A stretch of 64,000 bases of DNA. It comes from Escherichia coli. GTDB lineage: Bacteria; Pseudomonadota; Gammaproteobacteria; Enterobacterales; Enterobacteriaceae. Position 1 is the first letter of the stretch. The number at the start of each line of letters is the position of its first letter. Where the stretch lies: NCBI RefSeq assembly GCF_030013595.1, contig NZ_CP122769.1, one strand, 5' to 3'. Positions 53,901-59,900 of this stretch are shown here, in pieces. Position numbers: made by a program.

Positions 53901-56900
53901 AGATGGCAGGAAGGTTGTAGGCCAAATCCCTATTGCTGTTGCTGAGAAACAAATGAAGCCAAACACAACTCTGTCGGAAATGCTTTTCAAGAAGGCCGGA
54001 AAAGTTACTTTGCGTCAAAATCTCGATATCAAAAATCTTAATAAATTTCTAAGGAAGTTGCATTGATGGATGAAAAAATTGTCCTGACGCGCCAGCAAAT
54101 TTTAAGCTCTGCACTAAAAGTCAGCAAATGTCGCTCGCTCGTAAAAAGGCGCTTTCAGTCTTTGGGTTTAAAGTACGCAGATTCTCAGGAAGTTCGAGAT
54201 CGGCTAACTAAGATAGAAAAAAACGCGTTTCATCATTTGGGAAAATTTTGTCAGAGCAACGATATCGATTCCCTATTCTCCATGGCAAATACCCTGTCTG
54301 AGCTTTTCCTTTTAAAGGGAGAGTTGATCACGACTGATCCCTTTGGGGACCGTGAAACCAGCTACTGGTCGGTACCACAAGGTTCATGCCATGAATGGAT
54401 TCAATCGCTGACCACCAGCGAAGGTCCTGAACGTAAATTCGTTAGTTTCCGTATTTCTTTCGATAACAATGACGAACGGTGTGATCTTGTAAAGAAGAAT
54501 GCCCGTATGCTTGGTTGTTATCTTTTGCCTTATTTCGTCGATTTGACACGCACGGTGGGCGCATTCATTAATTTGCCAGGTAGTGTCTCTTTTAAACAAG
54601 TACAGCGCATCAAACCCCAGATTCATCCAGAAACAACACATAGTCATATAGTTACTATTGAGGACTCTCCCTTTCTTTCTCGGTTAAAATTTAAAATCAT
54701 TACTGCCATAGATCGGCTTCCTGACCCTAATGGCCTTTATACAAACACCTTTAACAGCATTATTGACCGTGCACTGCTGACTCATCTCAAAACCGAACAG
54801 GAAAAAATAGATAGTCCAAGAGTCTGCAAAAATGTGATTTCGGCTTTTGCCGACTCAACTCTTTCTCTGCCGGTGTTTAACATCGGCCTAAACGAGCAGT
54901 ACAGATACTGGACGCCGTGGGGCATCAACTTTATAGAATTTTCCCGCCAGGCCGCAAAAGCAAGGACCGCTGTATTTGTTCCTGATGTGGGACAGATCGA
55001 GTGGAAAAGCGCAGAGCATAAAGAACTGGCGGAGTTAAGCCTCATCGACCAAATCATACCTAAACAGTACCACTGGCTCCTGGGTATCCCGACGATGTGG
55101 CGTAACAACTATTGCAATCACGATCAGAGGCTAGCTCTTTTTCGTGAATGGAGGGAAAGCAATGGCTGCGGATAATACAAGCAGAGCAGCAGTGCTCAGA
55201 ACAATGCTTTTTTTTGGCATGGTCATTTATTTTGGTTACAGCCTGGCTTTCCAGAATACTGAGGAGCTCAAATATCAGATTACTCAGGAGGTTAATGCAA
55301 GCCGGTCCATCATATCAAATGACCGTTGGAAGTCTGTTATTGCAAATAGTGAAGCGACTTTAAATTGGTTGGTACATGACTATAAGTTAATTGACTATCT
55401 GAATACTATTCTGATCCCTGACACCAAAAAACCAGCCAGAGGTATTAACATTGTTGCTGAAAAATTTACCTCTATTAATTACACTATGGCCAAAAACATA
55501 CCCCTCTTACTTTATCAGTCCATTTTCCGGTGGAACTTAATCCTGGGGTGGCTAATCGTTTTTCTGCCCTATCTATTTGCCATGCTAGCAGATGGAATGT
55601 ACCAGTGGAAATTGAAGAGGTACGTATTTGGTAAGGTTACAGTTCAGTTTTATCGTATTTGGTTTCGAGCATTTTGGGTGATCAGTGCTTTAACGATGGT
55701 CTACCTGGTCATGCCGAATATGTCACTATTTAACAATATCGCTCAACTTTTCCCACCAGTCGCTTTATTGATACTGGGAATTGCATTGAATCGCTTGTGG
55801 TCTAACTTTCAAAAACTCATGTAAAGGTGGTCAGATGTTAAGCAGTAAAAAAAGGAAGTCCCCTACAAATATCAAAGAATCGCTCAATGATAACGCTGAC
55901 CGTTTTTATAAGATGTTTCGCATTCATACCACGGCAAAAGTTGCTATGTCGCTAATTGCCATGACCGCTGTAGGGTTTTCTTTCTACAATCTTTACGAAC
56001 AATGGCAGGACGCTGAAGGGAAGAAAGACCATATAGCTGTAATACGGATTTCTGGCGAGATGGGTACCGGCTCGGAAACGGGCGATGGAACAGTGATCGC
56101 AACAGCTCTTGCCAAAGCTTACAATAATCCCCATGCCAAAGCAGTTATTATCGAGGCAGAGTCAGGTGGTGGTGGTCCCTCTGACGCCATCATTATTTAC
56201 CGCCAGATAAACGCGCTTAAAAACCACCAGCCACAGATTGAACGCGTATCAGATGCCGGTTGCTCTCTTTCATCTGTAGCCGCTGACAAGAGTAACAAAA
56301 CCGGGAGCACAGAACGTGGCGATGAAGCACGGTCGAAGCAAAACTCCCTCGAAGTACTCTCCAGCGGTACCGGTCGTTTTTTCTCTGATATCGCAGACTC
56401 ATATAAACCAATCATCGTTAGTGTGAAAGGCATATGCGCATCCGCATGCTATTACGCGGTATCGCCCGCTGATGCAATTTATGCCGACAGTAATGCCCTG
56501 ATCGGTTCTATCGGTGTGCGTATGGACCACTGGAATCTGTCAGAGATCATGAGCACAGTAGGCGTCAAGAATGAGCCCCTTACGGCCGGTGAGTTCAAAG
56601 ATGCTCTTGACCCCTTCCACCCATTGTCCGATTCAACGAGGGAGTTCATGCAGAAGGAGATCCTGAACACGATGCATGAAAAATTTATAACTGATGTTGA
56701 ACTTGGACGGGGTAAAAAGCTTCTCTCGCGTCATGATGCCGATGCTGTTTCTCTCTATTCAGGCCGTGTATGGCCAACACCTCAGGCAGTTAAGTACGGC
56801 CTGGTGGATGGAGATCTTACGTCAGTAGAGATCCGTACACGTCTTTCAAAAATGTACTCCACTGACACGTTCAAAAACTACAATGAGCCTCATCGTAATC

Positions 56901-59900
56901 TCCGTTCTGCACTCGGCATGCTGATGAGCCTGTCTTCAAATATTGAGAGCCTTACCGGTACCACTACCCGCTTGGTAGAATCTGTTAATGCCACCAGCTA
57001 CCCCTCTGTGAGGTAACATGGATGCTTTCAATCTGCTGTGGAGCATTACGGGGGTAGCTTTCATTATCCTTATTTTCGTCGTGTTGCTGTGTCTGTTGGG
57101 TTTTATGACCTCTGCCATAGCGGAACGGCGGACTGCAAAGGCAATTGAATCTGGGCTTCCTGAAGAAGCTCAGGGGCTACTTAGTGATCTCACCTTTCAG
57201 TTGTCGGCTCATAGCACTACTCAGGTTGATCACATTCTCGTAGCCCCACATGGTATATACGTCATAGAGCAGAAAAACTACGTAGGCAAGCTCTACGGTA
57301 CTCTGGAGGAAAGCCACTGGCGGAAATGGACTCAGTCCCGAACCCTCAAGTTGCAGAACCCGTTTAAGCAAAACCAGGGGCACATCAGGGCTATTCAGTC
57401 TGCTCTTAAGGCTAGAGAACTGGAATGTATCAATGTCGTCATCATAAACGGACGTTGTAAGTTTGATGGCATCAAGCCGGAATGGTTATGTATGGGGATG
57501 GACGATTTTATCCATAAAGTCAAACAACGACGAGGGCTACGGTTGTTCACACCGGAGTCTGTTCAGCACATCTGTTCGGTGTTGAAGTCAACAAGGAAGT
57601 CGCCAGGGCTCTATACGGACCTTACTCATATTCACAACATAACGACAAAGTACAAAGCCCCGATGAAATTCGAGCAACGAGTAACATACATTCTGCTCAA
57701 CTTTATCCATTATCTGTGGGCAAGTCTGTTCACTAAGCAGAAGCCTTAGCGCTCTATCATTGGTAAGGCTGTAAAATGTCTGCAAAAGGCCCCATCGGTA
57801 AATTGTTGGGGCTTTTTCTTTGCGTAGTTCTGATACGGTTTATCCTGTGGAGCATTATGGCCACCAGCCAGCTGGTGACTGGCCAACGCTTTGTATGACG
57901 TAGCCTACTCAGGGCAGGCTATTTTAGAGGGACCGATTTTTATCCGGGCTAATTTAGAAAGAGATAATTTGAACTTAGGCGGGCTGACCACCAGCAGAGA
58001 GGTAAATCACTAGCCGGTGATATTGACAGAAGTCGTCAGGGGTTTAACGCCGGAATATTTTGCCAGGCCTCCTGCAAGGTCTGCAAGACTTCTACAAGTG
58101 ATAGTGACGGCCACAGGACTGTTTCCGTCATTATCACTCCAGGTGGCTCGCACTCTACTGGTACCAGAATTAAAACAACACGAGTTCCTTTTACCTGGTA
58201 GGCAAGGTTTACTGCCGGTTGGCGGTAGGAGGCCAGTACACCCTCACCATATTGAGCAGGGTTACTTGCCCAGTTCCGCACCATTGCATACACCTGAGGC
58301 ATATACCGACTATCCAGATCCCCTTTGGGCCGTCTGAACGGCACGATTTCTTCTGAGCGGTAGGTGGTCGTTGTTGTATTGGTTGTCATCTTTGTCACCT
58401 CCCCTGTTCGTCCATTTAGAGTTTTAAGCTGCTTTACACATCACACTCAACTGATTATTTAAGCTGGTCATCGTCTCTGGCCAGCATAGCCCAACCATTC
58501 GACTGGTTTTCGCGGGAGTAAGGATTCATTTCAAAATAACTATCTACCGCGTCGCTGTCCGCAACAGAACTGTTGTTAGCTCTCTTTGAACCCTGAACCA
58601 CTACAGCATCAACCTCTGCGGCTTTCCCGTTGCGCTGTACCAGGATTTTAACCGTCTTGGGCTTACGTCTTGCGAGCAGTTTGTTGGCGATAAAAAGCAC
58701 AACAATCCAGGCCAAAAGCACGTATAAAAATTTATTCATAATGCCCTCCTTTGTATGTGATTATTATACCTGCTTCCATTGCAGGCCAAACAGGTTCGGT
58801 GTATGAAAAATAGACTTCTCTCCGGCGTATAGCAATCTACTTACTGATCTGTTTTCGTATCAAACTGTATGGCATAACCGAGGGGCGTACGTGGTGAGTC
58901 AGAAAGTTACTTTTCCGTAATAGTTAATTTCAGATCCTTCTTCCAGTTACGCTTCAGTATAAAACCGATACCCTCTAATTCAGCATCCTTCACGTTTAAT
59001 ACGCTTCACTTTAAGGCAGGGCTTTTCGGTTGATATGAATTCTTTTTCCGGTTGCTGGACATGGGTTTCATCCTGATAGTTAAAATTGCAGGCTATCAGT
59101 CACCACCACCACCTCCTCCTCCTCCTCCTCCACCGCCACCATCACAACCACCAGCTATGCTATTTTCACCATTACAATCACCTCCGAGGGGGTTCAAATG
59201 GCTGTAAGCGTAAACTGACCGCCGTATGTAGCCATCAGACGAGAATTGGTAACTTAGACGCCCATCTGATATAGACGGACATCTAAGTATGGAATTACAG
59301 GACTGGCGAAAAGAACCTCGTAAAAACTATTCGAATGAATTCAAACTTCGTATGGTGGAACTGGCATCACAACCTGGAGCTTGTGTTGCACAGATTGCAC
59401 GTGAAAATGGCGTCAATGATAATGTTATTTTCAAATGGCTCAGGCTCTGGCAGAACGAAGGGCGTGTTTCGCGGCGTCTTCCGGTAACGACCTCTTCTGA
59501 CACTGGCGTTGAATTATTACCTGTAGAAATAACGCCGGATGAGCAGAAAGAACCTGTGGCGGCCATTGCGCCGTCTTTATCCACTTCCACTCAGACCAGA
59601 GTCAGTGCCAGTTCCTGCAAGGTGGAATTCCGTCACGGTAACATGACGCTGGAAAATCCATCGCCAGAGCTGCTCACGGTGTTGATCCGTGAACTGACCG
59701 GGAGGGGAAGATGATCTCACTCCCATCAGGTACCCGTATCTGGCTCGTTGCCGGCGTTACCGATATGCGTAAATCCTTCAACGGACTGGGAGAACAGGTA
59801 CAACATGTGCTGAATGATAATCCCTTCTCCGGTCACCTGTTTATCTTCCGTGGCCGACGGGGTGACACCGTCAAAATTCTTTGGGCTGATGCTGATGGTC

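Follow-up and report, generated by a model that had tools for sequence, protein, structure and literature searches.

The window analysed here, a 64,000-nucleotide stretch of an Escherichia coli assembly (NCBI RefSeq GCF_030013595.1, contig NZ_CP122769.1), carries a gene for an SppA-like peptidase of family S49 inside a conjugative transfer operon. Alignment to characterised SppA enzymes, together with a structural model, leads us to predict that the gene product is a catalytically competent Ser/Lys protease. It is tentatively interpreted, with a confidence that falls a little short of even, as an accessory SppA-like envelope protease which is largely redundant with those of the host, and not as a pilin maturase. 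The gene itself is already known, being annotated in RefSeq and in the literature on R27, the prototype plasmid of incompatibility group HI1 (IncHI1). The contribution of the present analysis lies in the invariant catalytic pair, the SppA fold, an IncHI-specific insertion, and the gene order and conservation across lineages of elements with MOBH relaxases. The gene and the features recognised within and beside it (aa, amino acids; nt, nucleotides) are as follows.

55835-57016, plus strand: S49 (SppA-like) peptidase gene, 393 aa, orthologue of R27 R0116 (open reading frame (ORF) list; PF01343; RefSeq; tblastn)
55825-55830, plus strand: ribosome-binding site AGGTGG, 4 nt 5' of the S49 ATG (inspection of the sequence)
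55940-55996, plus strand: probable signal-anchor transmembrane helix, residues 36-54 (Kyte-Doolittle maximum 1.39, basic tail before it; presumed topology)
56162-56179, plus strand: S110-G-G-G-G-P115 loop, aligning with the SPGG loop of SppA (alignment; motif table)
56225-56398, plus strand: hydrophilic 58-aa insertion, residues 131-188 (alignment; AlphaFold2)
56435-56449, plus strand: Cys201-Cys205, C-A-S-A-C around the nucleophile (alignment; motif table)
56441-56443, plus strand: codon of Ser203, predicted nucleophile, motif G-I-C-A-S-A-C-Y-Y (alignment to the serine of SppA AASGGYY)
56597-56599, plus strand: codon of Lys255, predicted general base, motif A-G-E-F-K-D-A-L-D-P-F (alignment to the lysine of SppA GxxK...P)
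56882-57013, plus strand: C-terminal tail, residues 350-393, with a conserved YNEP-x-RNLRSALG (alignment; predicted local distance difference test score (pLDDT) 38-57)

The extent of the gene given in the original prediction is reproduced exactly by the ORF list, and its placement between a TraJ-like and a NERD-like gene agrees with the Pfam domains on either side (DUF4400 upstream, NERD downstream). The gene starts with ATG, and its product is 100% identical to the RefSeq protein WP_000952983.1 ('S49 family peptidase'; plasmid tblastn and annotation of pSTM6-275), which occurs in about 950 IncHI2 plasmids. The ribosome-binding site abuts the stop codon of traJ (55822-55824), and only 10 nt separate that stop from the S49 start, while a single nucleotide lies between the S49 stop and the NERD start. 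Further upstream, traI and traG overlap at TAATG, and traG and the next ORF overlap at TGATG. These junctions are those of a single operon. A consensus scan gave one weak promoter-like match only, which falls within S49 itself, and detected no strong terminator-like site in the operon stretch; shuffled sequence yielded at least as many promoter-like matches as the whole of the region scanned.

Various disrupted or rearranged forms of the gene are also on record. In plasmid pE92-1 (NZ_CP119735.1, 2501-4747) the S49 gene is interrupted by the insertion sequence IS5, and the plasmid is still typed as conjugative, which makes it a natural knock-out; such a disruption was seen in one of about 979 IncHI2 records. 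The homologues also include a 509-aa DtrJ-S49 fusion ORF from an assembled contig of 1.9 kb, as well as a NERD protein of 251 aa that begins with a stretch 97% identical to the C-terminus of S49. A frameshift, a deletion or the assembly probably accounts for each of these two variants.

Membership of the family is shown by Pfam Peptidase_S49 (PF01343), which matches residues 188-338 at 99.2 bits (cut-off 24.9; E 2.9e-28), and a phmmer search against solved structures returned Bacillus subtilis SppA (3RST, 4KWB; E about 1e-14) as well as E. coli SppA (3BEZ). The alignment to SppA that had been suggested as a check on the catalytic Ser and Lys places both residues: Ser203 aligns with Ser147 of B. 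subtilis SppA and Ser409 of E. coli SppA, and Lys255 with Lys209 of the E. coli enzyme and position 199 of the B. subtilis enzyme (Ala in both crystal sequences). Reference residue numbers were obtained via chain offsets of 55 for B. subtilis SppA and 25 for E. coli SppA. We take Ser147/Lys199 (B. subtilis) and Ser409/Lys209 (E. coli) to be the published catalytic pairs, with which the chain offsets agree. In an alignment of 27 homologues, reaching down to 28% identity, Ser203 and Lys255 are invariant, as are S110, G112, G113, P115, G224-S225-x-G227-V228, D259, R292, G310 and W313. A single-chain AlphaFold2 model built from this alignment has a mean pLDDT of 77, with the catalytic core mostly at 83-95, and its best Foldseek matches are B. 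subtilis SppA 4KWB and 3RST (E 1e-16, template modelling score to target 0.86-0.88), followed by E. coli SppA and then ClpP.

The likeness to B. subtilis SppA (a 36K-type enzyme) thus covers the single S49 domain, the presumed N-terminal anchor, the fold and the aligned Ser/Lys pair. The two differ in that identity is only about 21%, in that the plasmid protein has the 58-aa insertion, CASAC in place of AASGG and a different C-terminal tail, and in that the window gene is plasmid-borne, in a transfer operon. E. coli SppA (protease IV, a 67K tandem enzyme) and SohB are host inner-membrane S49 proteases with the same catalytic chemistry; in E. coli SppA, however, the catalytic pair is split between two S49 domains, whereas the plasmid protein has both residues in one. 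Scores fall under all the NCBIfam equivalog cut-offs for SppA (TIGR00706, 121.2 vs 155.45 bits; TIGR00705, 96.1 vs 311.45; PRK10949, 59.1 vs 746) and SohB (PRK11778, 54.9 vs 259), and the proper name is therefore 'S49 family peptidase' rather than SppA. Apart from S49, the Pfam scan matched nothing in the protein: there was no Peptidase_S26 domain and no NfeD match, nor an SPFH-domain neighbour, and a weak NfeD1b_N match was given by distant chromosomal homologues only.

Missed equivalog cut-offs, the unusual CASAC motif and the large insertion could also be those of a degenerate, catalytically dead S49 homologue with a structural role only. This is extremely improbable, given that the 27 sequences show no change at Ser203, at Lys255, in the glycine-rich loop, in GSIGV and at other core residues, that CASAC is common to chromosomal housekeeping homologues, and that the catalytic core is modelled with high pLDDT. 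The presence of CASAC in those chromosomal homologues also rules it out as a conjugation-specific signature. An origin from a phage head-maturation protease was likewise considered and rejected: no phage match spans more than 51% of the protein, identity being about 30-35%, and the sole long match in the phage collection is a record of an IncC-like plasmid.

The membrane anchoring that had been claimed for the protein is plausible. Residues 1-35 are hydrophilic and basic (8 K/R vs 3 D/E), the hydrophobic segment 36-54 follows, and the AlphaFold2 model has a single long helix across residues 13-61; this signal-anchor pattern would place the helix in the inner membrane and the protease domain in the periplasm, as in SppA. 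In the IncHI clade a conserved RFY motif, on the presumed cytoplasmic side, precedes the membrane helix. An insertion of varying length at residues 131-188 is found in the IncHI-type clade only (identity of at least about 42%), while homologues under about 40% identity are gapped at this site, bar two Motilimonas proteins with a shorter, unrelated insertion. The first half of the insertion is variable and modelled as disordered (pLDDT <50, residues 133-157), and the second half forms a helix (157-177) ending in a conserved K-x-N-x-L...G-x-G-x-F motif. Cys201 and Cys205 are nearly invariant in the dtrJ-linked clade and shared by some chromosomal homologues, whereas the IncC, Pseudomonas and Methylomonas proteins have glycines in their place (G-A-S-G-G); the two cysteines could form a disulfide beside the active site in the oxidising periplasm. 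The C-terminal tail may correspond to the C-terminus that B. subtilis SppA processes itself (title of entry 4KWB).

The region around the S49 gene shows at least 99% DNA identity to 977 plasmid records, whose hosts are Escherichia, Salmonella, Enterobacter and Klebsiella. The representative retrieved from these, pSTM6-275, is typed as IncHI2A with a MOBH relaxase and mating-pair formation (Mpf) type MPF_F, and the window therefore takes in Tra1 of an IncHI2 (R478-like) plasmid. The minus strand holds trhG (TraG_N), trhH (TraH), a thioredoxin-like TraF of F type and, at the trhR/trhY position, two small ORFs. Past an intergenic gap, the plus strand reads MobI-family gene, 245-aa ORF, traI, traG/TraD, 370-aa ORF, traJ/DtrJ, S49 and NERD, with the following neighbours of the S49 gene.

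47553-48092, plus strand: MobI-family gene at the R27 traH position, first in the operon, beside the oriT intergenic region (Pfam MobI, E 3.5e-22)
48830-51982, plus strand: traI, MOBH relaxase (Pfam TraI_2; RefSeq 'MobH family relaxase')
51982-54066, plus strand: traG, TraD-type coupling protein (type IV coupling protein, T4CP; Pfam TrwB_AAD_bind, TraG-D_C)
54063-55175, plus strand: 370-aa ORF, R27 R0118-like, overlapping traG and traJ (ORF list; RefSeq; R0118 in the H operon)
55162-55824, plus strand: traJ, DtrJ-like (DUF4400) membrane protein, directly upstream of S49 (Pfam PF14348, E 1.2e-12; RefSeq coordinates)
57018-57749, plus strand: NERD-domain gene with a hydrophobic N-terminus, last in the operon, R27 R0115-like (Pfam NERD, E 1.1e-21)

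The R0118-like ORF has no Pfam, NCBIfam or PADLOC match. In relatives its slot holds an unrelated-looking ORF of 190-233 aa, and it is empty in plasmid pVPS92-VEB of Vibrio parahaemolyticus. The GC content is 0.38-0.40 across 44001-50000 (trhR/trhY, oriT, traH) as against about 0.46 in the remaining backbone. About 1.5 kb 3' of the NERD gene, an IS66-family element occupies 59289-61705 on the plus strand (tnpA 141 aa, tnpB 116 aa, transposase 537 aa), and pSTM6-275 lacks it at the corresponding site.

That the S49 gene belongs to the transfer operon, as first proposed, is borne out by the packed junctions and by its R27 orthologue. The two are the same gene, with 100% identity to the IncHI2 RefSeq protein and 72% to that of IncHI1, and with no difference of substance. 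In the supplementary expression table for R27, R0115-R0122 form the H operon and R0116 is listed as '(H), peptidase', with a signal of 1498 at 25 C and 1424 at 37 C; in an htdA mutant at 25 C the signal reaches 7056 (4.7-fold up), and traJ (7.3-fold), R0118 (8.6-fold), traG (9.2-fold) and traI (11-fold) rise alongside it (PMC7366339). From this listing and derepression it follows that the gene is known, expressed and under HtdA/TrhRY control like the transfer genes. The Tra1 region of R27 comprises 14 ORFs, of which nine bear tra or trh names; R0116 is not among them. In the work of Lawley and colleagues from 2002, 9 of 14 insertional disruptions reportedly abolished transfer, and traH, traI, traG and traJ, lying upstream of oriT, are said to be needed for transfer and not for H-pilus production. 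Taken together, the naming of the genes and these reported disruptions suggest that R0116 would be dispensable in laboratory matings.

The gene order relaxase, coupling protein, (hypothetical ORF), DUF4400/DtrJ, S49 was found in eight MOBH lineages, the IncHI2 window included. The other loci are listed below.

IncHI1: order kept; S49 72% identical, between traJ and the NERD gene
Klebsiella plasmid p12208-IMP, with IncHI-type gene order: order kept; 48-51% identity
Vibrio gigantis p1: order kept; 28% identity
Vibrio parahaemolyticus pVPS92-VEB: order kept
Motilimonas replicon: order kept
Two metagenomic elements: order kept

In the window and the seven other lineages, S49 is thus linked to mobI-traI-traD-dtrJ, the DNA-processing and coupling module. 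At three of the loci it is followed by a small ORF and then by traL-traE-traK-traB, which places it in the midst of transfer genes there. Pairwise identity, averaged over the eight loci, stands at 0.385 for S49 and 0.387 for the coupling protein, as against 0.295 for TraI and 0.279 for DtrJ; S49 is, in other words, conserved as well as the coupling protein. Its divergence correlates with that of the coupling protein, TraI and DtrJ (Pearson 0.90-0.94, Spearman 0.51-0.66), and against the Klebsiella plasmid it has the highest identity (51%) of six operon proteins. The nonsynonymous rate (dN) of S49 is 0.19 against IncHI1, and the gene is clearly under purifying selection. Ratios of nonsynonymous to synonymous rates (dN/dS) between IncHI2 and IncHI1 or Klebsiella are undefined for five of the six genes because synonymous sites are saturated, and a value was obtained for traJ only (0.044).

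This arrangement is not universal among MOBH plasmids. The S49 gene lies beside dsbA in IncC, after traN in Methylomonas pLM6 (which also carries its own S26 peptidase) and alone in a Pseudomonas plasmid. These proteins resemble that of the window in being short and presumably membrane-anchored and in their presence on MOBH/MPF_F conjugative plasmids, and are 26-36% identical to it or to its Vibrio homologue; they differ from it in having canonical GASGGYY and no insertion, and in their other genomic positions. Outside mobile elements, the closest relatives are short SppA-like genes on the chromosomes of Gammaproteobacteria, which share the CASACYY motif and lie amid housekeeping genes, and this points to a captured housekeeping enzyme.

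The conserved order nevertheless raises the alternative of a dedicated protease of the coupling module, which would cleave DtrJ, the R0118-like protein or the coupling protein and thereby tune the assembly or activity of the transfer channel. DtrJ would most plausibly be the specific substrate. The DUF4400 protein is TraJ in both Rts1 and R27; TraJ of Rts1 is essential for transfer, and in IncC the protein has been characterised, under the name DtrJ, as a component of DNA transfer that is mentioned alongside the coupling protein TraD. Membrane proteases of the NfeD/STOPP type, with a Ser/Lys pair, cleave a membrane protein encoded beside them, and the S49 gene stands directly after dtrJ in all eight lineages, down to about 30% identity, with a divergence that tracks TraI, TraD and DtrJ and a conservation equal to that of the coupling protein. 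DtrJ has strongly hydrophobic segments at about 121-146, 166-184 and 189-210, preceded by a hydrophilic stretch of about 90 residues that could face the periplasm, where the protease domain is expected to sit; the clade-specific insertion and the conserved juxtamembrane motif also favour a specialised enzyme. On the other hand, the adjacency to dtrJ may merely reflect block inheritance of the operon, and the gene is placed elsewhere in the IncC, Methylomonas and Pseudomonas MOBH plasmids. Furthermore, SXT and Rts1 need DtrJ, yet the SXT annotation is without an S49 entry and the Rts1 study names S26-type peptidases only; that R0116 was never given a tra name likewise suggests that it has no strong transfer phenotype. 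A dedicated protease is regarded as doubtful, though it is the main rival to the reading preferred here. The more particular proposal that S49 is a co-evolving part of the MOBH module acting on a periplasmic loop of DtrJ or, with still less likelihood, a protease/cyclase of the pilin TrhA, is considered unlikely.

The end of the operon offers a different explanation, in which S49 has no conjugation role and is a passenger, with or without the NERD gene, serving in envelope stress, resistance to membrane-active peptides or defence. Its distal position beside the NERD gene is in keeping with this, since NERD domains occur in defence proteins; the NERD protein of the window, which has a strongly hydrophobic N-terminus, matches the NERD portions of the defence kinases PglW and MAD6, and also MkoA, weakly and in part. 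A passenger would also sit well with the probable lack of a transfer phenotype in R27, with the S49 relatives outside tra operons and with the IS5 knock-out in a plasmid typed as conjugative. Against it, the NERD gene is confined to IncHI-type plasmids and is absent from every non-IncHI relative that keeps S49, the S49 gene lies between dtrJ and traL, amid transfer genes, in several relatives, and it is derepressed along with the tra genes in R27. None of the S49, DtrJ and R0118-like proteins had a PADLOC match. The passenger explanation is accordingly rated as quite unlikely, and a defence system formed with the NERD neighbour was set aside on account of the missing PADLOC match for S49 and the restriction of the NERD gene to IncHI-type plasmids.

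A role in pilin maturation was among the possibilities raised by the original prediction, which assigned the processing of pilin or another transfer protein in other systems to 'TraF/TrbC-type proteins'. This phrase runs together TraF, the peptidase of RP4, and TrbC, which is the substrate pilin of TraF. In favour of such a role, the H-pilin TrhA is cyclic with five C-terminal residues removed, and its protease/cyclase is not yet known according to a 2025 preprint. S49 would then take off the leader of TrhA or its C-terminal pentapeptide, or would cyclise the pilin via a Ser-acyl intermediate, and further points in its favour are a Ser/Lys pair chemically like that of RP4 TraF and the co-regulation of the gene with the tra genes in R27. 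IncHI2 plasmids, however, have a separate 170-aa S26 peptidase gene directly upstream of trhW-trhU-trhN in Tra2 (Pfam S26, E 9e-21; locus L021, 2956-3468), fused into this pilus operon. It is the trhP of R27, which is marked 'peptidase' within the AN operon and counted with those Tra2 genes that are described as encoding Mpf proteins and synthesising H pili, and it is labelled 'TrhF' by the Prokaryotic Genome Annotation Pipeline (PGAP). The gene that R27 calls trhF lies in the window at 43984-45030 on the minus strand and encodes the F-type thioredoxin-like TraF (PF13728), not a peptidase. The paper on the H-pilus names 'TrhF' as the R27 homologue of RP4 TraF, probably because PGAP applies this label to the S26 peptidase TrhP.

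The linkage of the S49 gene points in the same direction. It is joined to DNA-processing genes rather than pilus genes, and linkage to pilus-assembly (Mpf) genes is absent from the window and the seven other lineages, Methylomonas being the only case in which S49 follows traN. Mutations in genes of the H operon, moreover, reportedly block transfer and leave H-pilus production intact. Comparison with SXT and Rts1 is also instructive: the Rts1 pilin and S26 peptidase match SXT proteins, SXT having the S26 peptidase TrhF and the pilin TraA, and there is no S49/SppA entry in the SXT annotation, while the Rts1 study names two S26-type peptidases only. Moreover, SppA-type enzymes are degradative signal-peptide peptidases which clear signal-peptide fragments, not site-specific maturases. 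RP4 TraF, R27 TrhP and Rts1 Orf215 share with S49 that they are plasmid serine peptidases expressed with transfer genes and acting, as is presumed for S49, on the periplasmic side, and differ from it in their S26 family and fold, their linkage to pilus genes and their requirement for pilus formation. Maturation of pilin by the S49 protein is not supported by these findings, and we hold it to be very unlikely. The original prediction is accordingly supported in part, and its looser suggestion, an action on some other transfer protein, may hold.

The interpretation preferred here, that of an accessory envelope protease, can be outlined as follows. One N-terminal helix would hold S49 in the inner membrane, its protease domain lying in the periplasm, and the gene would be transcribed in the IncHI H operon, so that the protein is produced alongside the relaxase and the coupling protein. 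During expression of the transfer genes S49 would degrade cleaved signal peptides as well as misassembled membrane and periplasmic transfer components, a demand for clearance that could arise from the production of more than 20 exported type IV secretion system proteins. It would thus represent a plasmid copy of a housekeeping function, largely redundant with SppA and SohB of the host, and this redundancy would, we propose, render it dispensable in laboratory E. coli matings. Topology, substrate range, oligomeric state and host redundancy are in each case what we infer for this protein. Such an interpretation accords with the housekeeping-type descent, with the role of SppA and with the seeming absence of any transfer phenotype. 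Two precedents agree with it as well, namely R27 DsbC, the loss of which lowers transfer only in dsbC-null hosts, and the LepB-like peptidase (Orf185) which Rts1 itself requires; both are plasmid versions of host envelope enzymes expressed with transfer genes, although they are different enzymes from S49.

Several points weigh against an accessory, host-redundant protease. With 121 bits against a cut-off of 155, the protein falls below the SppA equivalog and is hence not simply SppA, and the IncHI-specific insertion and RFY motif, as read from the alignment, suggest specialisation. Conservation at the level of the coupling protein and adjacency to dtrJ at about 30% identity fit a specific partner better than a redundant copy. 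R0116 also lacks the temperature response of the genes at the start of the operon (1498 vs 1424; PMC7366339). In the accessible literature, no direct experiment on the S49 protein or an orthologue was found, nor did it yield anything pertinent on transposon screens of IncHI plasmids or on a tie between the IncC S49 gene and AcaCD.

The importance of the gene depends on which of these explanations applies. Resistance genes, mcr among them, are carried to a major extent by IncHI2 plasmids, and the S49 gene belongs to the conserved backbone of these plasmids. Were it merely to duplicate host SppA, it would be a minor accessory gene; were it to have a specific substrate in the coupling module or to mature pilin, it would represent a new conjugation step and a possible drug target, namely a protease step in conjugative DNA transfer that lies outside current models. 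The gene order in eight lineages and the coupling-protein-level conservation make S49 worth functional study, though the finding in itself is unsurprising.

Apart from the transfer region, the window carries several resistance determinants. A 541-aa phosphoethanolamine transferase (24225-25850, plus strand) scores 1302.7 bits on the NCBIfam MCR-1 family model, above the cut-off of 1100, and the window therefore carries a colistin-resistance gene of the mcr-1 family. A metal-resistance block on the plus strand (1-6249 and 14367-15767) encodes an AcrB-family resistance-nodulation-division (RND) pump of 1048 aa, which starts right at the edge of the window, together with an 825-aa heavy-metal P-type ATPase and a sensor kinase of CusS type; the GC content of the block is 0.53-0.55, compared with about 0.46 for most of the window. 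A copper-resistance multicopper oxidase of PcoA/CopA type is split into two plus-strand ORFs (8231-9322 and 9319-10047; 363 and 242 aa), which match model positions 5-359 and 366-593 and represent either a frameshifted pseudogene or a sequencing error.

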